From the NCBI GenBank assembly GCA_965195285.1, contig CBDAFS010000062.1:32001-96000 (forward strand): a stretch of 64,000 nt of DNA. Direction: 5' to 3'. Positions 43,579-53,391 of the stretch are shown here, piece after piece (positions within the stretch are counted from its first letter, which is position 1; the number at the start of each line of letters is the position of its first letter). A model generated the notes under the pieces. It had not been told where the DNA came from. It saw nothing but the letters and a program-made list of their open reading frames with translations, and did no database searches. The position numbers and the translations under genes were made by a program. The stretch is from an uncultured Aminicenantes bacterium (GTDB taxonomy: Bacteria; Acidobacteriota; Aminicenantia; UBA2199).

Positions 43579-44919
43579 CTAAAAAGAGATTGAATGGTTT
43601 TTTACTATAGACAATCTGTGAACCTTTTTGATTTCATCAATATAGGATTTTTTTATATCAAGTTCCTTTGCAATTTTCGGCCATGTCGAAATAACATCGG
43701 TGATCTCTTTAACAATGGATCTATAAGAATCTATACGCTGATCAACACCGACTTTGTGAAGATCCTTTAACGTAAATTCATCTCTTTTACCATTAATGGT
43801 CATTTGATGTCGGTTTGTCCATTCCCCTTTGGGATTATATGAATAAATAACATCATAAGCTGGTGATAGTTTCCAATTGCCTGTTTTATCCATTAAAAAT
43901 GAGATATTTTTCGTATGGTCGTCCTGGTTTCGTGAAATGACATTAAATACCATTCGTCTGTATAGTTGTTCAATATCATATGGCGATAAATTAAGCTCAC
44001 GTAAAATCTGAAAAGCCTGTTCATATGAATAGGCTCCAGGGGAATTAAAATCAAAGTGAGATATTGCACATAAGGTTTGTAAATGAATTTTTTCGCCCTC
44101 TACTCTGTCAAAACGTTTTGTCATAAAATGATACCTGTTATTTTCTTTTAACAGTTCACAATCTGTCATATTGATTCCACAGGATTTTGCCAATTTACCA
44201 TACGCATATTCGATTTTTCCAAAACCTTCTGGATCCTCCAATGAATTATCTTTTATTCCGTCAAATTTTAAGATCCAGTACGAAAAGCCTTCAGGAGCTT
44301 TGACCTGGCCCGACCTTATTTCATTTGTATTTTCATTATATGCAATAACAGCTTTTGGCCTGTTTCCTCCTGCAGATGTACCAACACGGATAATATTAAG
44401 AAGTGCTTCAGAAGATGCAGATGTATTATCTATAAAATTAGTATTTAATCTGGATCTTTCATTTAGTACGGTTTGAGCCAACTCCAGGAGTTTTGAGACT
44501 TCAACCGGTACAGATTTATCAATATCTTTATTTAATATAGGTTTAAATTCTAATGCACCCATTCCCCTTTTCCCTGTATAACATAATCTTTCAATTGGAC
44601 TGAAAGTTTCAGGTGTTCTTCCTTCTCTTGCAAGCCATGAATCTATGATACTGTTCCCGAATTTATCCGGAAGAGAATCTGAGAGAAGCCCGGGTAATCC
44701 CTTAAAGGTATTTTTGGGAAGGTTTCTGAATTCAAAAGAAGGCCTTTTTCGTTTGATCGCTTCACTTAAAGGCATTGTGAGTGGTGAGAGGTTCAAATCC
44801 ATATTTAGAAATTTTGAATCAAATTCAAAAGTTGCATATTCTTTTTCGGCATTCCAGGAAACTGCACCAACAAGGTTTCCCCAGATATTTATATAAGCTA
44901 CATCAACTCTTTTTTCCAA
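43579..44919 (-). CDS. hipA: HipA family toxin kinase
   Basis: Couple_hipA-like N-terminus, GTSAGGNRPKA P-loop, WILKFD, NQDDHTKN, LSPAYD; TTG start after AGGAG. Confidence 0.94.
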   Translation of the reverse strand: MEKRVDVAYINIWGNLVGAVSWNAEKEYATFEFDSKFLNMDLNLSPLTMPLSEAIKRKRPSFEFRNLPKNTFKGLPGLLSDSLPDKFGNSIIDSWLAREGRTPETFSPIERLCYTGKRGMGALEFKPILNKDIDKSVPVEVSKLLELAQTVLNERSRLNTNFIDNTSASSEALLNIIRVGTSAGGNRPKAVIAYNENTNEIRSGQVKAPEGFSYWILKFDGIKDNSLEDPEGFGKIEYAYGKLAKSCGINMTDCELLKENNRYHFMTKRFDRVEGEKIHLQTLCAISHFDFNSPGAYSYEQAFQILRELNLSPYDIEQLYRRMVFNVISRNQDDHTKNISFLMDKTGNWKLSPAYDVIYSYNPKGEWTNRHQMTINGKRDEFTLKDLHKVGVDQRIDSYRSIVKEITDVISTWPKIAKELDIKKSYIDEIKKVHRLSIVKNHSISF

Positions 44920-44934
44920 ATTATAACTCCTATA

Positions 44935-45240
44935 TTACTTAACACTTTTTGAGGCCCTCTTCCTGGCCCTGCCTTTTAATTTTGCAAGCTGCAGAGGACT
45001 AATCCCCTGCTCAGGTAATATCGAATCGAGTTCATCAAGTTCCTTCAATGCTCTGAGTATCTGTATAAAAGTCAGCATACTAAAAGGTTTGCCCTTTTCA
45101 ACTTCCACAATTGTTGATCTGTTTAAGCCTGATAGCTTTGACAGATCCTTTTGCGAAATATTTTTTTCAAGCCTTTTTTGTTTTAAACGTCTACCGATCT
45201 CTTTTAATATTGCAAAATCAGTAAATCCATAAATACTCAT
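44935..45240 (-). CDS. HTH antitoxin (HipB-like, XRE)
   Basis: IGRRLKQKRLEKNISQKDLS...RSTIVEVEKG, ISPLQLAK...RKRA; directly upstream of hipA. Confidence 0.88.
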   Translation of the reverse strand: MSIYGFTDFAILKEIGRRLKQKRLEKNISQKDLSKLSGLNRSTIVEVEKGKPFSMLTFIQILRALKELDELDSILPEQGISPLQLAKLKGRARKRASKSVK

Positions 45241-45447
45241 AATGTCCCCCAAATCCATCATTTTTCTATAATTATGCCATTAATGATGGAAAATACCAAC
45301 ATATATATATGTATTCAAAGTGTGTTTTTTTCAACTTTTATTTAGGATTTAAAATTAAATTAACTATTTACCGAAATCTTGAAAGTAAAAAGAATATGCG
45401 CGTTTGTACCCTTTATCTCCATTTGAGTAATGAAATTCTTGAAGAAG

Positions 45448-45470
45448 TCAAGAAAGCAACGACCGTCCCC
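45448..45470 (+). repeat. Island motif copy
   Basis: TCAAGAAAGCAACGACCGTCCCC, 19/23 identical to the copy at 51172. Confidence 0.75.
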
Positions 45471-45599
45471 AATCCTTTCTAAAACCAATTCAAGAAAATA
45501 TTTTTTATCTTTTGAAGATTTAAATATCTTCTCCCCATTTATGCCCCTGTTCATGACATGGTGAAAGGCATCTTTGTAAGTAATTCTTGGGTGACGCAT
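45471..45599 (-). pseudogene. N-terminal fragment of REP-associated/Y1 HUH tyrosine transposase (RAYT)
   Basis: MRHPRITYKDAFHHVMNRGINGEKIF...DKKYFLEL; homology stops after ~40 codons, before the HUH motif. Confidence 0.85.
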
Positions 45600-45618: not shown

Positions 45619-45643
45619 TGTCATACTGTCAAGCAACGTCCCC
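45619..45643 (+). repeat. Island motif copy containing a minus-strand TTGACA
   Basis: TGTCATACTGTCAAGCAACGTCCCC; first 21 nt are 19/21 identical to 46400-46420. Confidence 0.75.
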
Positions 45644-45721: not shown

Positions 45722-45777
45722 TTTTCAGGTTTCAATGCACCGACTCCACTATTTTTTTTATAATGCTAAAATAAAAG
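45722..45777 (+). repeat. ~56-bp direct repeat, left of the lipoprotein gene
   Basis: CAGGTTTCAATGCACC...ATTTTTTTTATAATGCTAAAATAAAAG; partner at 46300-46357. Confidence 0.8.
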
Positions 45778-45867
45778 TCCCTCTTAAAGTTCATTTCTTC
45801 GTAGTCCACTTTCCTTTCTTTGTCTTTTGGGATATATTATGTGTAACAATTTTAAGGAGGAAGAAAA

Positions 45868-46299: not shown

Positions 46300-46357
46300 T
46301 TTCCAGGTTTCGATGCACCTCCCCCAATCCATTTTTTTTATAATGCCAAAATGAAAG
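46300..46357 (+). repeat. ~56-bp direct repeat, right of the lipoprotein gene
   Basis: CAGGTTTCGATGCACC...ATTTTTTTTATAATGCCAAAATGAAAG. Confidence 0.8.
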
Positions 46358-46399
46358 ACGTGATCCTATTAACACACCGAGCATGGAGGTTTCCTAAAT

Positions 46400-46420
46400 T
46401 GTCACACTGTCAAGCACCGT
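46400..46420 (+). repeat. Island motif copy lacking the terminal CCCC
   Basis: TGTCACACTGTCAAGCACCGT. Confidence 0.7.
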
Positions 46421-46572
46421 TAAGCCTCTTACTTAATAAAAAGCAGGTAGAAGAAACACAAAAATTATGCTTGAAAAGTCAAACACAGATTTGACCCCTT
46501 TATATTGTATACGTCCCTTTTATCTTTTAATTTTAATTTCTAAAGTGTTATGATAAAAACAAAGTATTTAAT

Positions 46573-49500
46573 ATGATCAATAGAAGGAAAATTATTGAAA
46601 CCTTTGAACAAATATTTCTTTTAGAGCTGCATCATTTAAAAAATCGACCTGATCTAATATTTCAACAGTTGTATAATGAGCTGCAGTGGAAAGAAAGAGA
46701 AATTAAGGAAATTGTAGAAAAAGCAAGGAAAACATATTTACATTCCGGAAGATCATTTCTCCACCAGTACAGAAAACCCAAAGTTGAGGTAAATCATCTG
46801 ATGATGACCTTGGCAGGGCATAAAGATGCGGTGAATGCTTGTGTCTATTCCCCAAATGGGAAACACATTGTTTCAGCTAGCAGTGATAATACCTTAAAGA
46901 TCTGGGACAGTGAGAATGGCCAGGAAATTGCCAGACTAACAGAACATACAAGTAGGATAAAAGCATGCGCCTATTCTCCTGATGGTAAATGGATTGTTTC
47001 AGCAAGTACTGATAGAACCTTGAAGTTATGGAGCGGTGAGACATTTCAAAAAGTTTTCACACTGAAGGGACATTCAGGTGTTGTACACTCTTGTGCGTTT
47101 TCTCCGGATGGGAAGAAAGTGGTATCAGCAAGTAATGATTATATGTTAAAACTGTGGGAAACAGAGACAGGAGAGGAGCTAGCAACTCTGAAAGGGCATT
47201 CAAATTTAGTAATATCCTGTGCATTTTCACCGAATGGAAAAAGGATTGTGTCAGCTAGTTTTGATAGAACATTAAGAATCTGGGACGCTGAGACTGCCCA
47301 AGAATTAACGATATTATTAAAAAATACCAGATTGATATTTTCCTGTGCTTTTTCCCCTGATGGGAAAAAGATTATCTCATCATGTGATGATTCCACTTTA
47401 ATAGTTATAGATATTAAGACCGGCCAAACATTAGACGTATTAATCGGACATAATAAATTATCTGGTGCTGCTATATCTATGTCAGATACTGGTGGTGACC
47501 CATCTTTTTCCGGATGGATATTATCTTGTTCATATTCTCCTGATGGGAAAAGAATTGTTTCAGCTGGTTATGATGGAACCTTAAAAACCTGGGACGCTGA
47601 GACTGGCCAAGAATTAATGACTTTTAAAGAACATATAGGCCAGATAAATTTCTGTTCATACTCCCCTGATGGGAAAAGGATTATCTCAGCTGGTGCTGAT
47701 AACACAGTAAGGGTATGGGATTGTGAAATCTATAAAGAGAGAGAAATCAGGAGAGAATTAGCTATACTTAAAGGTCATAACTCGACTGTTAAGTCATGTG
47801 TTTATTCCCCTGATGGAAAAAGAATTATATCTGCAAGTCGTGATAATACCTTAAAAATCTGGGATAGTAAGACAGGGGAGGAGACACATACCCTAACTGG
47901 GCATACTGATTCTGTATGCTTCTGTTCATGGTCTCCAGATGGAAGAAGAATTATATTTGCAAGTGAAGATAAAACTTTGAAGATATGGGATGCAGAAACA
48001 GTAAAAGAAATTACCATACTAACAGGACACACAGGTGGGATAATAGCATGCGCCTATTCTCCTGATGGGAGAAGAATTATATTTGCATGTGAAGATACAA
48101 CCTTAAAAATCTGGGATAGTGCAACAGGGAAGAAGACACATACCCTAACTGGGCATACTGATTCTGTATGGTTCTGTTCATGGTCTCCTGATGGGAAAAG
48201 AATTGTATCTGCAAGTGAAGATAAAACGTTAAAGATATGGGATGCAGAAACAGGAAAGGAAATTACTACACTAACAGGACACACCGGTGGGATAATAGCA
48301 TGCGCCTATTCCCCTGATGGGAAAAGAATTGTTTCTGGAAGTAGAGATCTAGCCTTGAAGGTCTGGGATAGTGAGATTTTTATGGATCAAGCGACATTAA
48401 AAGGCCACATTGGAATGATAACTTCTTGCAATTTTTCACCAGATGGAAGAAGAATTATATCTTCAAGTACCGATAAAACCTTAAGGGTCTGGGATATTGA
48501 GAATTTTAAAGAATTGCTAACCTTAAGAGGACATGTTGATACAGTAACCTCTTGCAACTTTTCACCAGATGGAAGAAGAATTATATCTTCAAGTGACGAT
48601 AAAACCATAAGGATCTGGGATAATAAGAATGGTGAAGATTTAGTAATACCAATAGGACATACTGATGTGGTAGATGTCTGGGCTTATTCCCCAAATGGGA
48701 AACAAATTACATCTGGAAGTTTTGATAAAACCTTAAAGATCTGGGATGTAGATAGGGGAGAAATATTTTCTACACTAATTGGACATAATGATAAAATAAC
48801 GGCCTGTGCTTATTCCCCGGATGGGAAAAAAATAATCTCGGGTAGTCGTGATAATACTTTAAAAATTTGGGATAGTGAGACAGGGCGGGAAATCCATACC
48901 CTAACTGGGCATAGAGGTGAGGTGAATGCTTGTGTCTATTCCCCAAATGGGAAACACATTGTTTCAACTAGCGATGATAATAACTTAAAGATCTGGGATG
49001 CAGAAACAGGAAAGGAAATTACTACACTAACAGGACACACCGGTGGGATAATAGCATGCGCCTATTCTCCTGATGGGAGAAGAATTGTATCTGCAAGTCA
49101 AGATCAAACCTTAAAAATCTGGGATAGTAAGACTTTTGAGGAATTGCAAACATTAAGAGGTCATTTTGATGGAGTATACTCTTGTGATTTTTCCCCTGAT
49201 GGGAAAAAAATTATCTCAACAAGTGCTGATAAAACCATAAAAATATGGGATATTGAGAGAGGTAATGAGTTACTTACATTAATAGGATATTGGTTCCATA
49301 AAAATTCACTTTATGGGAAAAGAATGATTTCCGGACTTTCAGATGGCAGTGTTAATGATAAATTAAAGGTTTTGGATACAGAGACAGGAAGAGAGATTGT
49401 CACTCTTATAGGACATTCTGGACTTATATTAGATTGTGCTTGGTCTCCGGATGGGAAAAGAATTGTTTCTGGAAGTAGAGACCTAACCTTGAAGGTCTGG

Positions 49501-49635
49501 GACAGTGAAATAGGAGAGGAATTATTTATTTTTTATACTAGATATTATGTAAACAAATGCAATTTTTCTCCTGATGGAAAATCAATTGTAGCTGGGGATT
49601 ATAATGGGAATGTATATTTTCTTAAATTAGTATGA
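46573..49635 (+). CDS. WD40 repeat protein (~22 repeats) with short N-terminal helical segment
   Basis: 42-aa repeats GHxxxVxxCxYSPDGKRIxSxSxDxTLKIWD; no signal peptide and no P-loop. Confidence 0.95.
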   Translation: MINRRKIIETFEQIFLLELHHLKNRPDLIFQQLYNELQWKEREIKEIVEKARKTYLHSGRSFLHQYRKPKVEVNHLMMTLAGHKDAVNACVYSPNGKHIVSASSDNTLKIWDSENGQEIARLTEHTSRIKACAYSPDGKWIVSASTDRTLKLWSGETFQKVFTLKGHSGVVHSCAFSPDGKKVVSASNDYMLKLWETETGEELATLKGHSNLVISCAFSPNGKRIVSASFDRTLRIWDAETAQELTILLKNTRLIFSCAFSPDGKKIISSCDDSTLIVIDIKTGQTLDVLIGHNKLSGAAISMSDTGGDPSFSGWILSCSYSPDGKRIVSAGYDGTLKTWDAETGQELMTFKEHIGQINFCSYSPDGKRIISAGADNTVRVWDCEIYKEREIRRELAILKGHNSTVKSCVYSPDGKRIISASRDNTLKIWDSKTGEETHTLTGHTDSVCFCSWSPDGRRIIFASEDKTLKIWDAETVKEITILTGHTGGIIACAYSPDGRRIIFACEDTTLKIWDSATGKKTHTLTGHTDSVWFCSWSPDGKRIVSASEDKTLKIWDAETGKEITTLTGHTGGIIACAYSPDGKRIVSGSRDLALKVWDSEIFMDQATLKGHIGMITSCNFSPDGRRIISSSTDKTLRVWDIENFKELLTLRGHVDTVTSCNFSPDGRRIISSSDDKTIRIWDNKNGEDLVIPIGHTDVVDVWAYSPNGKQITSGSFDKTLKIWDVDRGEIFSTLIGHNDKITACAYSPDGKKIISGSRDNTLKIWDSETGREIHTLTGHRGEVNACVYSPNGKHIVSTSDDNNLKIWDAETGKEITTLTGHTGGIIACAYSPDGRRIVSASQDQTLKIWDSKTFEELQTLRGHFDGVYSCDFSPDGKKIISTSADKTIKIWDIERGNELLTLIGYWFHKNSLYGKRMISGLSDGSVNDKLKVLDTETGREIVTLIGHSGLILDCAWSPDGKRIVSGSRDLTLKVWDSEIGEELFIFYTRYYVNKCNFSPDGKSIVAGDYNGNVYFLKLV

Positions 49636-49919
49636 GTATATATATTTGAACACTAAATCTCAGGCCCAGTTGGAATTAAGTAAAGTATTTTTATCAAATA
49701 AAAAAAAGGGAAAAAAGGGGGACGTCCATTAAAAGTTCATTGTCAAGTAAATAGATCAATTTTTTTGATTTTTTTTCAAAATCGGTTTAAAATTTAATTC
49801 AATGGTAACGATTAGCCCTTCTCACGCCCGTGTTTTCTGTTATTTTTGGTTTGCAGGGTTAAAATTCCCGCACCAGTCATCCATATGGATTTGGAGAATA
49901 AAAATATGGAAATATATCC

Positions 49920-50150
49920 AAAAAAAATATTTATTCTCCTTTGCACCTTTTGGTGCTCCAGAAAACCTTTGGTGCCATCCCATGTCCATAATTTTGGGTT
50001 TGCAGATAACTTATGGCTCTTTGTCCAACCCCGATTGGCTCAAGGGATGGGCGAGAGTTACTAAACATTACCATTTGTAAAGGTTGCGGCAGTTTTCCAA
50101 TCAGATCTGGTGGTTCTTAGTCCAACCCCATTACTGGTTCACTGCCGCAG
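49920..50150 (-). ncRNA. Candidate IS110 bridge/seek RNA
   Basis: Stems 50141-50149/50085-50093 and 50044-50050/49975-49981, each enclosing an internal loop and a near-duplicated hairpin GGGGTTGGAC..AGA.CCA. Confidence 0.6.
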
Positions 50151-51054
50151 TCTGTTTTTTTATTGGTCCGAATATACGTTCAATATTATAGTCTTCTTGA
50201 TTTTTCATCACATAGTAAGAAGCACGAGCAATTTTATGAGCTAAAGCTTTTATTGCTACAATATTACTTGTTTTAGCAGCTTTTCTCTGGAAAAATCTCA
50301 TTGCATAGGGGCAATTTTTTTTCGCATGATTGGCTACTTCAACATAAGCCCAGGATAAATATTTATTACCATTCTTTCTGTTGTTTTCACCTTTCTTTTT
50401 TCCATTCGAGTATTTACCACTTGAAACACACCTGCTATAAGAGGAGTAATTTCCTACTTTTCTAAAACGATCGATTTCTCCTACTTCAAGCGAGATAGTG
50501 AGAGCAAGAATGTTCCCTATTCCGGGGATAGTCAATAGTTTTTGGAATTGGGACATAGGTTTAATAAAATCTAAAACCTTTTTTTCAATTTCTCTTATTC
50601 TCTCACTCAGAAAGATGATTGTTGCAATATTGGCCTGTATGGGCAGTCCTTTGCCGAACTAACATTAAACGCTTCCTCAGTAAATCTCTTATGGGCCTCT
50701 CTTTCTTAGGTTAAATATAACCAGTGGGTAATATCCCTAATCTTAATAACTCTGCTAAAAAAAAGCATCACCCTGGTCATTTACATACTTCTTGCCTTCA
50801 TACTGCTTGATTGCTGACGGATTTTCCAGATGGACTTTGTAACCATCTTCAATTAGAGGATCAACCAACCAGTACCAATTTTAAGTAGATTCTACAACAA
50901 CTCCTTCAATTTTCTCTTTAAAAGGCTGCAACTCCCCGGATATCAATGCATAATGATTGGGAATCTTCTTCCTGTAAATTCGCTTACCATCCTCATCTAC
51001 CATACCTAACACCGTGTTAGTAGAATGAAGATCCATACCAACATAATTTTTCAT
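50131..51054 (-). pseudogene. IS110 family transposase/recombinase pseudogene
   Basis: YVGMDLH, VVVEST*NWYW, ENP, TIPGIG, SSGK, NGNKYL; stops at 50883 and 50713, 1-nt deletion in the A run at 50757-50764, and an internal deletion near 50638. Confidence 0.93.
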
Positions 51055-51171
51055 AAAACACCTCCTTTATTAACTATTTGAAGGTATTTTACTACTTTTA
51101 TTTAATCATACAGAATGCCTTCTATATGATTATCAGGTCTTTGATTTAAGTATTTGTCCTTTTTTATAAAC

Positions 51172-51194
51172 TCAAGAATTCAAGCACCGTCCCC
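51172..51194 (+). repeat. Island motif copy at the right island boundary
   Basis: TCAAGAATTCAAGCACCGTCCCC followed by CGTCTT micro-duplications. Confidence 0.75.
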
Positions 51195-51220
51195 GTCTTC
51201 GTCTTCCGTCTTATTCTTTT

Positions 51221-53341
51221 TTATTTTTGTGGAGTTTTCTTTTTGGCTGTATAGACTCCTGAAGGTTGATAAATTTCGAAACCGGTTACGTTGCCTTCTT
51301 CATCGATTAAAAATTTCAGGTTGATCATTTTATATTGTTTAATGGAAAATTCGTCGCCCAGTTGAGGCTCCAGATCGAAAAGCGGTGCTCCAGGTAATAG
51401 CAGAGTAAGGCTTTTCCCTTTCAATTCCACGGTGAAGGTCTGGCCGCTAAAATCATACTGCCCGGTAAACTGTTTCAGGAACTCCGGATCGTAAAAACGG
51501 GCAGCCGGTTTCATTTTGAAAACAATCTCCTCAAGGGTCGCTTCAAAAGGAACTTCCAGAGCTGACACAAGACCTCTTACATTGGTTCTGAAAGTCAGCT
51601 TGGTATCCTGGAAACTATCATCGGATGCTTCAGCCCCATTAAAAGTCTCAAAATGCCAGTGGTTCAGTGGTGTCGAAATCCCATTGAAGGTGAAAGCAAG
51701 TTGCTTGTCTTTTAAAAAAACCCTTAATTCACCGTATCCAGGGTGAACGTAAGTGCCGGTATATTCCTTAAGTTTATGAGCAGGATGAGTCCCTTTTTTT
51801 TGCCGTACCAGTTTTTTCTGTTTGGCTTCCTTTTCAGTTTGTTCGCCCTTCCCCTTCTTATCGGCAGCTTCAGAGAGCCATTTGATTGGTTCCAATTCCA
51901 ACAGGCGGTCGATGGCATGACGGATAAGCAGCTCAGGCAGGCCAGTGCCATTCTTATTGGCGAGAACGACAAATCCGAAACCGTCCTGAGGAAGGAAACT
52001 CACCATGGCAGAAAAACCGTCAATGTTTCCACCATGATGAACCCGGTGATGGCCACGGTAATTATCGATAAACCAGCCCATACCATAGTCAGCCGGTGAG
52101 ATTTCGGGTCTTTCATAAGTATTGCCTGTCGGCATATGAACCAGGTGCATGTCACCGATGGTAGAGGTATTAATAATTTGTTTTCCCCCGAATTTGCCCC
52201 AGTTGATGTGAACCATCACCCAGTTGCTCATTTCATTGATACTGGAGTTAATGGAACCGGCAGGTCCGATATTGGTGATGTTACGAAATGGAATCTCTTC
52301 TATTTTTCCTTCTTTTTCCCTGTAGGGCAGAGCATAATCAGTATCCTTCTGGGAGTCCAGAACTGAAAAATTGGTTCTTTTCATGCCCAGGGGGGTGAGT
52401 ACATGGGTCCGGATGGCATTTTCCCAGTTCTTTTCGGTCAACACTTCAACCAGATAACCGGCGGTTAAAAACATCAGGTTATTATACTGAAACTTTTCGC
52501 GAAGGTCAGCTGTGGGTTTCAGATGGGCCAGCCGCTGAACAAACTCTTTCCGGCTGGCAGTAAAATTGTTGTACCACATCAGATCATGCCGCGGTAATCC
52601 TGAGCGATGGGTAACCAGATCCCGTGGAGTTAACCGTTCTCCTGCATCCTGATCATAGAGGCGAAACCAGGGTATGTAATTTCGAACCGGTTTATTCCAC
52701 TCCATTTTGCCCTGATCCACCAGAATACCCAGAGCAAAGGTTGTAAAAGCCTTGGAAGATGATCCTATAGCCAGCAGGGTATCGGCGGTCATGGGAAGTT
52801 TCTGTTTGATGTCTCTATAGCCAAATCCCCTGGCTAATATAATTTTATTTTCTTTTACTATGGCCATGGCAAGACCCGGGACCTTGAATGTCTTCAAAGC
52901 CTCTTCAATGACCTTATCAAAACCAGCCAGTCTCTTTTTGGCCCGGGTAACTGGATCAGATCTCTCCATACCAAAGGGAAAGGTTTGGCCGCCCTGGGTA
53001 AAATGTCCACTGATGGTTTTACCATTCTCGCTTAATTGGCCCTCAAAGCTCGGATTGCCAGGGATACCCTTGATAGTAAAACTGACATCTTGCAGGGTTA
53101 CCGTAATCTTCTCCAGAGCAATATCTTTGGCTTGCTGAAGGGGAATAGAGATATCTCCTTCCCACAATCCCTCTTTATCCTGCTGAAAGTCAATATTAAA
53201 ATTCATCGGTTGTTGAGGGATGTCAATCTTTCCTTCCCAATGACCGGAAATAGAAGTTTTCTGATCGTTTGTTGCACCAACCTGAATGACTAATAATATT
53301 GCCAGGCAAGCAATAAAAAATTGTTTATATGTTTTATTCAT
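51221..53341 (-). CDS. Secreted serine hydrolase (beta-lactamase/peptidase S12 family) with C-terminal DUF3471-like domains
   Basis: Signal peptide, SxxK (GSSSKAF), YxN (QYNN), HGG; AAGGAG RBS. Confidence 0.9.
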   Translation of the reverse strand: MNKTYKQFFIACLAILLVIQVGATNDQKTSISGHWEGKIDIPQQPMNFNIDFQQDKEGLWEGDISIPLQQAKDIALEKITVTLQDVSFTIKGIPGNPSFEGQLSENGKTISGHFTQGGQTFPFGMERSDPVTRAKKRLAGFDKVIEEALKTFKVPGLAMAIVKENKIILARGFGYRDIKQKLPMTADTLLAIGSSSKAFTTFALGILVDQGKMEWNKPVRNYIPWFRLYDQDAGERLTPRDLVTHRSGLPRHDLMWYNNFTASRKEFVQRLAHLKPTADLREKFQYNNLMFLTAGYLVEVLTEKNWENAIRTHVLTPLGMKRTNFSVLDSQKDTDYALPYREKEGKIEEIPFRNITNIGPAGSINSSINEMSNWVMVHINWGKFGGKQIINTSTIGDMHLVHMPTGNTYERPEISPADYGMGWFIDNYRGHHRVHHGGNIDGFSAMVSFLPQDGFGFVVLANKNGTGLPELLIRHAIDRLLELEPIKWLSEAADKKGKGEQTEKEAKQKKLVRQKKGTHPAHKLKEYTGTYVHPGYGELRVFLKDKQLAFTFNGISTPLNHWHFETFNGAEASDDSFQDTKLTFRTNVRGLVSALEVPFEATLEEIVFKMKPAARFYDPEFLKQFTGQYDFSGQTFTVELKGKSLTLLLPGAPLFDLEPQLGDEFSIKQYKMINLKFLIDEEGNVTGFEIYQPSGVYTAKKKTPQK

Positions 53342-53391
53342 ATCACATCTCCTTAACATTATTGTCAATTTACTATTTTTGATATTAATAT

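Follow-up and report, generated by a model that had tools for sequence, protein, structure and literature searches.

A decayed IS1111-group insertion sequence whose predicted guide RNA probably directed it to the termini of Y1 transposase units

Results

The element and its ends

The window analysed here is a 64,000-nucleotide stretch of the genome of an uncultured Aminicenantes bacterium (contig CBDAFS010000062.1, positions 32,001 to 96,000, of assembly GCA_965195285.1). On its minus strand, from ∼51135 to 49722, lies what is very probably a decayed insertion sequence (IS) of the IS1111 group (IS110 family), with a downstream seekRNA/bridge RNA that guided it to the termini of Y1 transposase units. 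The extent of the element is given by homology to its best relative and by the junctions of multi-copy relatives; a first-pass annotation of the window, made from the sequence alone, had set the lower bound at 49920, ∼200 bp short of the limit given by homology to that relative. Relatives come from a scan of one genome per species, which returned 80 loci. The best of them, L006, lies in a metagenome-assembled genome (MAG) titled Candidatus Aminicenantes and is 93% identical in DNA sequence over positions 51141–50638 and 50638–49715 of the window. From left to right the element and the bases beside it comprise the following:

51136..51157, minus strand: left target half (LT), ACAAATACTTAAATCAAAGACC, the inner side of a type-A terminus (described below); from the sequence and paralogous stretches
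51133..51135, minus strand: TGA at the left junction, made up of the probable core TG and the first left-end base; from the identity break in L016–L019
51055..51132, minus strand: left end (LE), non-coding, 78 nt, which holds the ribosome-binding site (RBS); from the sequence and relatives
50131..51054, minus strand: IS110-family transposase pseudogene; from the L006 alignment and PF02371
49725..49746, minus strand: right end (RE), with a −35-like TTGACA at 49746–49741, the subterminal repeat CTTTTAATG at 49735–49727 and last bases GGA; from the sequence
49722..49724, minus strand: CGT at the right junction, deviant, TGA standing here in most relatives; from the junction comparison
49711..49721, minus strand: right target half (RT), CCCCCTTTTTT; L006 homology stops here

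The transposase gene is broken. The RBS and an ATG at 51054 start a frame that ends at a TAA, but straight translation of 50131–51054 meets 8 stops, and a three-frame view reveals frame shifts. Aligned with the L006 protein, the window yields residues 1–102 (89% identity, 2 stops), residues 95–148 in another frame (2 stops) and residues 179–349 as open sequence; 124 bp are missing at 50638 and a single nucleotide at ∼50756. The final 141 codons, an open reading frame (ORF) at 50134–50556, match PF02371 (IS116/IS110/IS902 transposase domain, E 6.5e-11), and the N-terminal 57-aa ORF taken alone has no Pfam match. L006 has 124 extra bases at the 50638 join and encodes an intact transposase of 349 aa with PF01548 (the DEDD/RuvC-like N-terminus, E 3.1e-14) and PF02371; it scores 166.8 bits against NF033542, ‘IS110 family RNA-guided transposase’, for which the cut-off is 140. 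Contigs from four other public runs hold the letters missing at 50638 and, at 50756, one A more; the breaks are thus peculiar to the window copy. In both the window and L006, non-coding DNA extends for 82 nt upstream and 409 nt downstream of the gene.

With its recombinase broken, the window copy is a dead fossil. The assembly (62 contigs, 94.9% complete) contains no second match to the L006 transposase, and one copy only of full-length element DNA. Parts of the element are found elsewhere in the genome: LT plus 40 bp of the left end on contig C45; a solo right end at C62:135479–135590, ending ATGGA|TGA|CCTCATTTT; another right-end remnant on C4; and an orphan RNA region at C32:29559–29742, 73% identical and with no transposase gene upstream, in which the hairpin guide is CCAGACUUGAUUGG and the end reads ...cctgATGGGTGAcccttg. 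The orphan seems to have lost the stretch between the donor segment (see below) and the right end. Among the runs listed, 20 runs from 12 studies carry the element or parts of it. The contigs of the four runs examined hold an intact version with other flanks, one of which resembles an empty AGATCTGACCCC site on C12; run X7 has no contig over 50045–50518, the hairpin region.

The ends were fixed with the help of four identical copies, L016–L019, in one Desulfobacterales MAG. Their flanks are unrelated as far as ...|TGA|TATTCATATAAAGG (left junction) and ...TTTAATGGG|TGA|C... (right junction). Because identity among these copies breaks exactly at TGA and TGA(C), the boundaries in the window are fixed also. 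By this pattern the left junction of the window reads AAATCAAAGACC|TGA|TAATCATATAGAAGG, with TGA at 51135–51133. The flank TCAGGTCT, read in the first pass at 51133–51140 on the plus strand, is correct and is this same junction, which on the minus strand reads AGACC|TGA|TAATCAT.... The opposite junction, for which the first pass had offered no position, can now be placed at 49730–49711 on the minus strand, ...TTTTAATGGA|CGT|CCCCCTTTTTT. Here the homology with L006 ends at ...TAATGGA|CGT|CCCCC (49730–49717), the corresponding sequence of L006 being ...TAATGGA|TGA|CCCCATTAAT. On the left, the similarity of the window, L006 and the C45 fragment extends ∼20 bases past the true end of the element.

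All junctions were located by fixed patterns, which found the left junction in 46 relatives. An exact right-end pattern replaced a fuzzy one that mis-matched several loci, the window and L016–L019 among them, and only the table obtained with the exact pattern was used. In L021, L056 and L075 a second, partial right-end copy stands a few bases past the right junction (e.g. ...TAATGGG TGA CACGCCCTTTAATGGG); these right-end duplications are tandem.

The LE opens with a 7-nt extension that includes TGA, followed by the subterminal inverted repeat CATATAGAAG (51128–51119). Compared by eye, TGATAAT-CATATAGAAG of the LE and CTTTTAATG-GA of the RE agree imperfectly, at ∼9/11 positions with one indel. 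The repeats are clearer in relatives (CATATAAAGGTC / GACCTTTAATGG in L016, CATGTAGCAGGC / GCCTGCTAATGG in L041); they vary among relatives yet agree within each element. The available text of PMC11187229 gives the IS1111 group subterminal inverted repeats of ∼11–13 bp, with extensions of 7 nt on the left and 3 nt on the right. A long downstream non-coding region and subterminal repeats with short extensions are the traits that mark the IS1111 group, and the window element shares them. Were the ends to be joined in a circle they would read TTGACA-N17-GATAAT, a putative junction promoter; a −35/−10 promoter at the circle junction is a published trait of the group (PMC11187229).

A conserved hairpin follows the stop codon

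The first-pass annotation had drawn attention to an IS110 bridge-RNA-like region after the transposase stop (TAA, 50133–50131), with UGGGGU (50130–50125) and CAGAUCUGA (50109–50101) on the two sides of an internal loop closed by a 9-bp stem. All three, on the minus strand, were re-read and are correct. The features concerned are:

50085..50149, minus strand: target-binding hairpin of the predicted seekRNA/bridge RNA, with a 9-bp outer stem, an inner stem CCAGU/AUUGG and a small apical helix; from the fold and relatives
50124..50135, minus strand: 5′ guide segment, AGUAAUGGGGUU, which overlaps the stop codon; complement of the top-strand core plus right target (GA CCCC ATTACT)
50099..50108, minus strand: 3′ guide segment, AGAUCUGAUU; reads in the sense of the left target, core and first LE bases (AGACC TG AT)

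In the minimum free energy (MFE) fold of 50160–49900 the outer stem is formed by UGCGGCAGU (50149–50141) paired with ACUGCCGCA (50093–50085). The fold has a z-score of −2.63 over 261 nt, and of 200 shuffled sequences one folds equally well. The 9-bp stem therefore stands as described; the internal loop is one reading of the structure, for in the MFE fold part of UGGGGU pairs with AACC/CCA.

Among the loci of 78 relatives, a loose pattern finds the hairpin just 3′ of the stop codon in 60, which carry 53 distinct sequences of it. From 5′ to 3′ the layout is a variable outer stem, AACC, 5–8 variable bases, GGGGUUGG and a small loop, followed by AACCA, ∼7 variable bases, UGAUUGG and the second stem arm. 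Complementarity between the arms was assessed free of alignment, with L014, L010, L066 and duplicates left out. In the 51 distinct hairpins (39 distinct arm cores) the longest run of outer-stem pairs averages 11.0 bp, with a minimum of 6, as against a mean of 5.4 (sd 1.4) for permuted arm pairs (n = 2166). RNAalifold, applied to a MAFFT alignment in which the 3′ arms are out of register in many rows, gave a weak consensus (−1.34 kcal/mol, 12 pairs). The hairpin is real and is conserved via compensating change. Its recurrence among relatives, together with the covariation of its stem, upholds the first-pass view of the post-stop region as a (predicted) guide RNA of the IS110 family.

Guide segments match the flanks and vary with them

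In the window, the 3′ side of the loop (AGAUCUGAU) repeats the left flank plus the core (AGACC|TGA|T), and the 5′ side (AAUGGGGUU) is complementary to the right flank (CCCC...). The part of LT that matches the 3′ guide is its last five bases, AGACC (51140–51136). Set side by side, the 3′ segment AGATCTGAT and the flank AGACCTGAT agree at 8 of 9 positions directly abutting the element end, a match beyond chance, to which our own arithmetic assigns ∼1e-4 at a fixed position; the single difference puts U opposite a bottom-strand G and is compatible with wobble.

L006 presents the same arrangement. To the left, its 3′ side is CCAGAACUGAUUGG and its junction CAAGAAC|TGA|TAATC: AGAACUGAU and the flank AGAACTGAT agree at 9 of 9 positions, in the same sense. 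To the right, the reverse complement (AACCCCATTACT) of its 5′ side (AGUAAUGGGGUU) fits (T)GA|CCCCATTAAT at 9 of 10. The two elements differ at one guide base, U in the window (AGAUCUGA) vs A in L006, and their flanks differ at the same position, C in the window (AGACCTGA) vs A in L006.

The 5′ segment complements the top strand and the 3′ segment reads in that strand's own sense; the two overlap at (T)GA. The target deduced in the first pass, TGGGG-TC-AGATCTG, is the reverse complement of the CAGATC-TGA-CCCCA obtained here and is correct. It was reached by applying the rule for IS621, and this did no harm because both rules describe one duplex from opposite ends. For a recombinase of the L006 type the predicted target forms would be AGAACTGACCCCATT and AGAACTGACCCCATTA. 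It had further been proposed that the guides spell an island repeat motif: the loop sides do spell the site, but UGGGGU is invariant in the clade and is not set for this island.

Covariation of loops and targets had been named in the first pass as a check on its reading, and across the relatives the guides do track the flanks. Flank counts exclude L014 (doubtful hairpin), L010 (hairpin insertion), L075 and L056 (second right-end copy after the right junction, or a mis-match of the left-end pattern) and loci without a located junction; duplicates were collapsed. On the left (36 distinct pairs, 27 guides) the five bases before TGA match at 4.0 of 5 positions vs 2.54 when pairs are shuffled, a value reached in 0 of 5000 shuffles; with wobble allowed the figures are 4.5 vs 3.46, again 0/5000. 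Agreement per position is 75–89%, compared with 35–69% against the flanks of other elements. In the same 36 pairs no covariation was found beyond the five bases before TGA. Single elements illustrate how guides track flanks: guides ATACU (L030), UCGGUC (L041), AGGGC (L054), GCAUC (L076) and AGCUU (L066) stand with flanks GATACT, TTCGGTC, AAGGGC, CGCATC and AAGCTT, respectively. The single guide of L016–L019, AGGUU, occurs with the flanks AAGGTT and AGACC (two copies each), and all differences are G-U wobble.

On the right, with 42 pairs and 31 guides, pairing at the first four bases (CCCC) is seen in 83–95% of elements. Variants of the guide have matching flanks: CGGG with CCCG (L028), AGGG with CCCT (L043) and AAGGG with CCCTT (L045). 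Over right positions 1–10, with wobble, the match is 6.95 vs 6.46 (2/5000 shuffles). The variable guide comprises ∼5 bases on the left and 1–3 on the right; UGA and GGGGUU are fixed in the clade.

A hairpin that overlaps a stop codon might be a mere terminator, or a translational or stability element, and its likeness to the flanks a by-product of a family motif. Both GGGGUUGG and UGAUUGG are invariant in the clade, and the pairing of hairpin RNA with DNA is predicted. Even so, we regard this explanation as very unlikely: the stem lacks a following U-tract, the five bases before UGA track the flanks, variants of GGGG track variants of CCCC, and published experiments on the IS1111 group show that the downstream non-coding region yields a target-selecting RNA (PMC11187229, in the text available).

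The targets are termini of RAYT-like Y1 units

Targets take the form ...AGAYYTGA|CCCC, the specified site being AGAYC-TG-ACCCC(ATT). The predicted 16-mer is found in the genome at 10 sites at two mismatches and 50 at three, most of them in repeated contexts. The corresponding pattern, type A (AGANNTGAYCCC), has 67 sites genome-wide, 28 of which are AGACCTGACCCC; for 30 controls with shuffled order the range is 0–30 (median 6.5). Type-A sites form outward-facing inverted pairs, 25–300 bp or ∼1 kb apart. A sister terminus, type B (CA[AC]CGTCCCC), occurs at 29 sites in the same kinds of context.

The 1-kb units on C31, C14 and C61 contain one ORF each, of 290–326 aa. The one ORF scanned, that of C31, matches PF01797 (IS200-like Y1 transposase, E 1.6e-13) and PF08299 (DnaA-type helix-turn-helix (HTH)); its best NCBIfam match is NF047646, ‘REP-associated tyrosine transposase’ (RAYT; REP, repetitive extragenic palindrome), at 69.5 bits vs a cut-off of 80. 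We refer to the units as RAYT-like rather than as RAYTs because they are multi-copy, possess an extra domain (PF08299) and fall under the NF047646 cut-off. RAYTs typically occur as one domesticated copy per genome, according to the text available of bioRxiv 10.1101/119735. A possible resemblance of GGGGTCAGGTCT to the terminal repeats of the Tn3 family was an idea dropped once the Y1 units had been found.

The genome contains 17 matches to PF01797, 16 of them above cut-off. A terminus lies within 1.2 kb of 9 of the 17 Y1 loci, vs 2.5% of 5000 random places, and at 7 of the 17 outward termini stand on both sides at very regular distances, vs 0.18% of 5000 random places. Among the relatives, 8 of 80 loci have a Y1 homologue in the left flank, with its start 50–61 bp from the IS junction in L019, L020 and L021. 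One relative from a Desulfobacterales MAG (L012:1541–1980) has the guides CGA and GGGGAC for UGA and GGGGUU and sits in GTCAAGCAC|CG|TCCC, a type-B terminus: this looks like natural retargeting to the sister terminus.

Three termini stand in the window in addition to the interrupted one:

51185..51194, plus strand: type-B terminus CACCGTCCCC, paired in a ∼70-bp repeat doublet with the type-A end that the IS interrupts; 29–36 bp matches in C31 and C15
46487..46498, plus strand: uninterrupted type-A terminus AGATTTGACCCC, end of a Y1 C-terminal remnant (46351–46494); 11/18 identical to the C31 Y1 C-terminus, E 1e-5
45634..45643, plus strand: type-B terminus CAACGTCCCC, beside a Y1 N-terminal remnant (45360–45599, minus strand); 21/40 identical, E 3e-10

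The second of these had been seen in the first pass; its reading, AGATTTGACCCC on the plus strand, was confirmed, and it proves to be the end of a Y1 remnant. The description of the sites as RAYT-associated holds in substance, for RAYT-like units, and that of the motif as an island-specific repeat fails, the motif being genome-wide. LT has paralogues on C45 (89% over 56 bp) and on C11 (85% over 33 bp), the latter running straight into CCCC without an IS.

Shared flanks could also result from co-transfer, were the IS carried together with the repeat in a larger composite; the ∼20 similar bases to the left of the junction in the window, L006 and C45 are of this kind. However, the similarity ends at the repeat terminus, the further flanks are unrelated, the right flanks diverge after CCCC, and in contigs of other runs this IS has different neighbours, one flank being like the empty C12 site. 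Co-transfer is thus exceedingly improbable.

The abundance of matching sites invites a further thought, namely that the element is still active here, by read-through or in trans, and continues to home into repeats. Allowing wobble, 30 of the 67 type-A sites (AGACCTGACCCC ×28, AGATCTGACCCC ×2) pair with the guide, and the remnants on C45, C4, C32 and C62:135479–135590 attest to past activity. Present activity is nonetheless highly improbable: the gene is broken by a frameshift, the 124-bp deletion and no fewer than 4 in-frame stops, it is the sole match to the L006 transposase in the assembly, and the element exists in one full-length copy. The proposal of the first pass, an RNA-guided IS that homes into RAYT-associated sites, is supported, with homing put in the past tense at this locus, where the copy is dead.

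Two further observations concern the termini. Outside many Y1-unit termini, the last terminus bases plus 6–14 flank bases are repeated 2–3 times in tandem (C18:114, C15:130, C55:110570, C31:41782 and C41:50488; e.g. GACCCCgatcatatGACCCCgatcatat and CGTCCCCattttttCGTCCCCatttttt); in the right flank of L006 (L006:3826–3870) TGACCCCATTAATTTTTGC stands twice in tandem. Degenerate termini of the AATGCTAAAATGAAAGACCTGACCCC type are present in the window at 45760–45790 and 46337–46365 (both plus strand): one has an internal deletion and the other reads AGACGTGATCCT. Both lie near a promoter-like TATAAT of flanking ORFs.

A predicted donor-side segment copies the right end

A further segment of the non-coding region concerns the element's own end:

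49876..49884, minus strand: donor-side guide segment AUGGAUGAC; reads in the sense of the right end, core and first right-target bases

A search for shared words found, in 11 of 11 elements tried, an 8-mer consisting of the last five right-end bases plus TGA, ∼200–380 nt past the stop codon. In the window this 8-mer is AUGGAUGA (49884–49877); it duplicates the right end, with which it covaries. The pattern of the segment was found in 37 distinct contexts, and its variable fifth base agrees with the right end in all 32 elements in which both could be read: A in 4 (window, L006, L007, L008), C in L030 and G in 27. Donor segment and right end are also alike in L012, where both read ATGGACGT, and in an annotated ISGsu4-family element from a Paraburkholderia plasmid, where both read ATGGGTGTC; in these two the match extends over 8–9 nt with other letters. 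Judged by eye, the segment lies in many relatives within a loop closed by GAUCC/GGAUC.

The two bases that follow TG in the donor segment (AC; TC in L012 and the ISGsu4 relative) are the first bases of the right target, and the two that follow UG in the 3′ target guide (AU) are the first bases of the left end. From a small number of independent variants, this suggests a TG core with handshake-like extensions.

The existence of the donor-side segment bears on yet another account of the left match, in which the matched sequence (AGACCTGA) is part of the element and the loop is donor-binding, without target information. In its favour, 51157–51102 is common to C45 across the proposed junction, and the left flanks of distant relatives are alike. 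But the flanks of L016–L019 are unrelated up to the base before TGA, the same 12-mer runs into CCCC at 28 IS-free sites, the C11 paralogue included, and a separate segment already matches the right end of the element. We give this account next to no credence and retain the loop as target-binding.

Neighbouring genes

A HipBA-type toxin-antitoxin pair (43579–45261, minus strand) adjoins the Y1 remnants: it comprises a HipA-like kinase of 446 aa (PF07804, PF13657) and an upstream HTH_3 protein of 108 aa. Between the Y1 remnant and the IS, 46573–49635 (plus strand) encodes a protein of 1020 aa, nearly all of it WD40 repeats (19 stretches); ∼85 bp past its stop codon lies the right flank of the IS. 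Beyond the left end, 51221–53368 (minus strand) encodes a serine hydrolase (715 aa; beta-lactamase family, PF00144, plus DUF3471), which ends ∼30 bp from the repeat doublet; there is no sign that this PF00144 protein has a resistance function.

Discussion

A model for targeting

An intact element would encode a DEDD/RuvC-like recombinase and, downstream, a seekRNA/bridge RNA, which would presumably be made and bound by the recombinase. The hairpin at 50149–50085 would be the target-binding part of this RNA and AUGGAUGAC, ∼200 nt further on, the donor side, repeating the right end plus core. So equipped, the element would insert at the outward terminus of a ∼1-kb Y1 unit or of a short non-autonomous derivative. 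At this locus, then, the IS inserted into the end of another mobile repeat.

Several observations weigh against guidance of this kind. Eight of the 17 Y1 loci have no terminus that fits either pattern. The shuffles used to assess covariation ignore relatedness and provide counts, not probabilities, and on the right the signal is weak beyond CCCC, positions 5–7 giving 1.26 vs 1.01 (64/5000 shuffles). GGGGUU and UGAUUGG are invariant in the clade, and the bases demonstrably variable number ∼5–7. A fourth segment, the left-end guide expected by analogy with IS621, was not found: the search returned only weak, wobble-rich candidates such as CUGGUGCGGAUC, which adjoins the donor segment. An Rfam scan of 49000–52000 (E up to 10) gave 6 weak matches, all far under their gathering scores, the best (E 0.051) being to a microRNA model. 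Two of the four runs with contigs are RNA libraries, and their contigs cover much of the element; this is not a sign of transcription.

The right junction of the window deserves separate mention among these points. Its flank, CCCCCTTTTT, fits the 5′ guide less well than that of L006 does, with 4 of 6 bases past CCCC pairing when wobble is included, and the junction itself has CGT in place of TGA. The same CGT occurs in L012 and in the C4 remnant, and CGA stands at the right junction of 6 relatives. We had considered that CGT is a doubly mutated TGA and set the idea aside, since CGT and CGA recur in relatives; U-G wobble accounts for the C, and the T remains a mismatch to GGGGUU. Termini of mixed type (AGANN[CT]GTCCCC) occur at 10 sites in the genome, and the insertion site in the window may have been one of them.

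What the wider clade does is a matter of even odds: it may be a clade of IS1111-type elements specialised as a parasite of another transposon family, the sub-family being tracked by the 5-nt variable guide. If so, the invariant UGA ... GGGGUU would match the invariant TGACCCC of the Y1 plus DnaA-HTH units, and variants like L012 would use CACCGTCCCC; the same-sense guide segments would each carry two bases of the joining partner, a feature not described for IS1111 in the available text of PMC11187229. The genomes concerned, MAGs and isolates, are labelled Aminicenantes, Desulfobacterales, Gammaproteobacteria, classes of Acidobacteriota, Planctomycetota, Verrucomicrobiota, Elusimicrobia and others.

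RNA-guided IS110/IS1111 recombinases are under development as programmable tools for inserting DNA, and natural guide–target pairs are the raw material from which their rules can be worked out. The present set consists of ∼50 distinct hairpins with their flanks, and documents which guide positions vary, that G-U wobble is tolerated and that the donor segment tracks the right end. It also documents that one mobile family uses the ends of another as landing pads in several phyla, a habit that may spare the host some damage and put the targeted units out of action. The mechanism is of the published IS1111 seekRNA / IS110 bridge-RNA kind, and the result for the window itself, a dead copy, is modest. 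The targeting of Y1-unit ends throughout the clade and across many phyla is mildly new, as are the donor-side segment and the handshake-like bases.

Comparison with known systems

Among the closest published systems are the IS1111 elements ISEc11, ISPa11, ISKpn4 and ISPst6, known to us by description (PMC11187229, Siddiquee et al. 2024). As far as the available text goes, these share with the window element a DEDD transposase of ∼340–350 aa, a long downstream non-coding region, subterminal repeats, the order of guide segments (in the seekRNA the match to the top strand precedes, from 5′ to 3′, that to the bottom strand), the absence of target duplication and the junction promoter, putative in the window; ISPa11, moreover, targets REP sequences. 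The differences are the target, here the TG-ACCCC terminus of Y1 units of an uncultured bacterium from sediment, and the broken state of the copy. The donor segment and the handshake-like bases were inferred here and do not come from that source.

ISPpu9 and ISPpu10 of Pseudomonas putida are IS110-family elements located in repetitive extragenic palindromes (PMC12288879; bioRxiv 10.64898/2026.03.19.712850, text available in part). ISPpu9 has extra orphan copies of its downstream small-RNA gene, as seen on contig C32, although host and element differ. The titles and abstract openings of the papers listed describe no link between IS110 elements and RAYTs, which is not proof that the link is unpublished.

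Transposases of the ISGsu4 family (Paraburkholderia plasmids, L086) have 47–50% amino-acid identity to the L006 protein and a hairpin in the same place. Their left end reads TGA-AAATCATCTAG and their right end CTAATGGG-TG; the 5′ side of the loop is CAUCGUUGAC, vs ..GGGGUU here, and the right flank TCGACGAT, vs ACCCC. Because an element of this family has a different target, the 5′ side too is reprogrammable in the wider family.

In IS621 the RNA is located in the left end and the 5′ side of the loop pairs with the bottom strand (PMC11208160, Durrant et al. 2024); this RNA has a target part and a donor part, with top- and bottom-strand segments that overlap at the core, and its targets are REP sequences (PMC11208160). 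Compared with IS621 as described in the available text of that paper and of PMC11208158 (Hiraizumi et al. 2024), the RNA of the window lies downstream of the gene, the order of its segments is reversed and its donor part does not look like a simple internal loop. The two hallmarks of an IS621-type bridge RNA, a position in the left end and a 5′ side directed to the bottom strand, are thus absent from the window RNA. It would work like an IS621 bridge RNA, though it is not of the IS621 subgroup.

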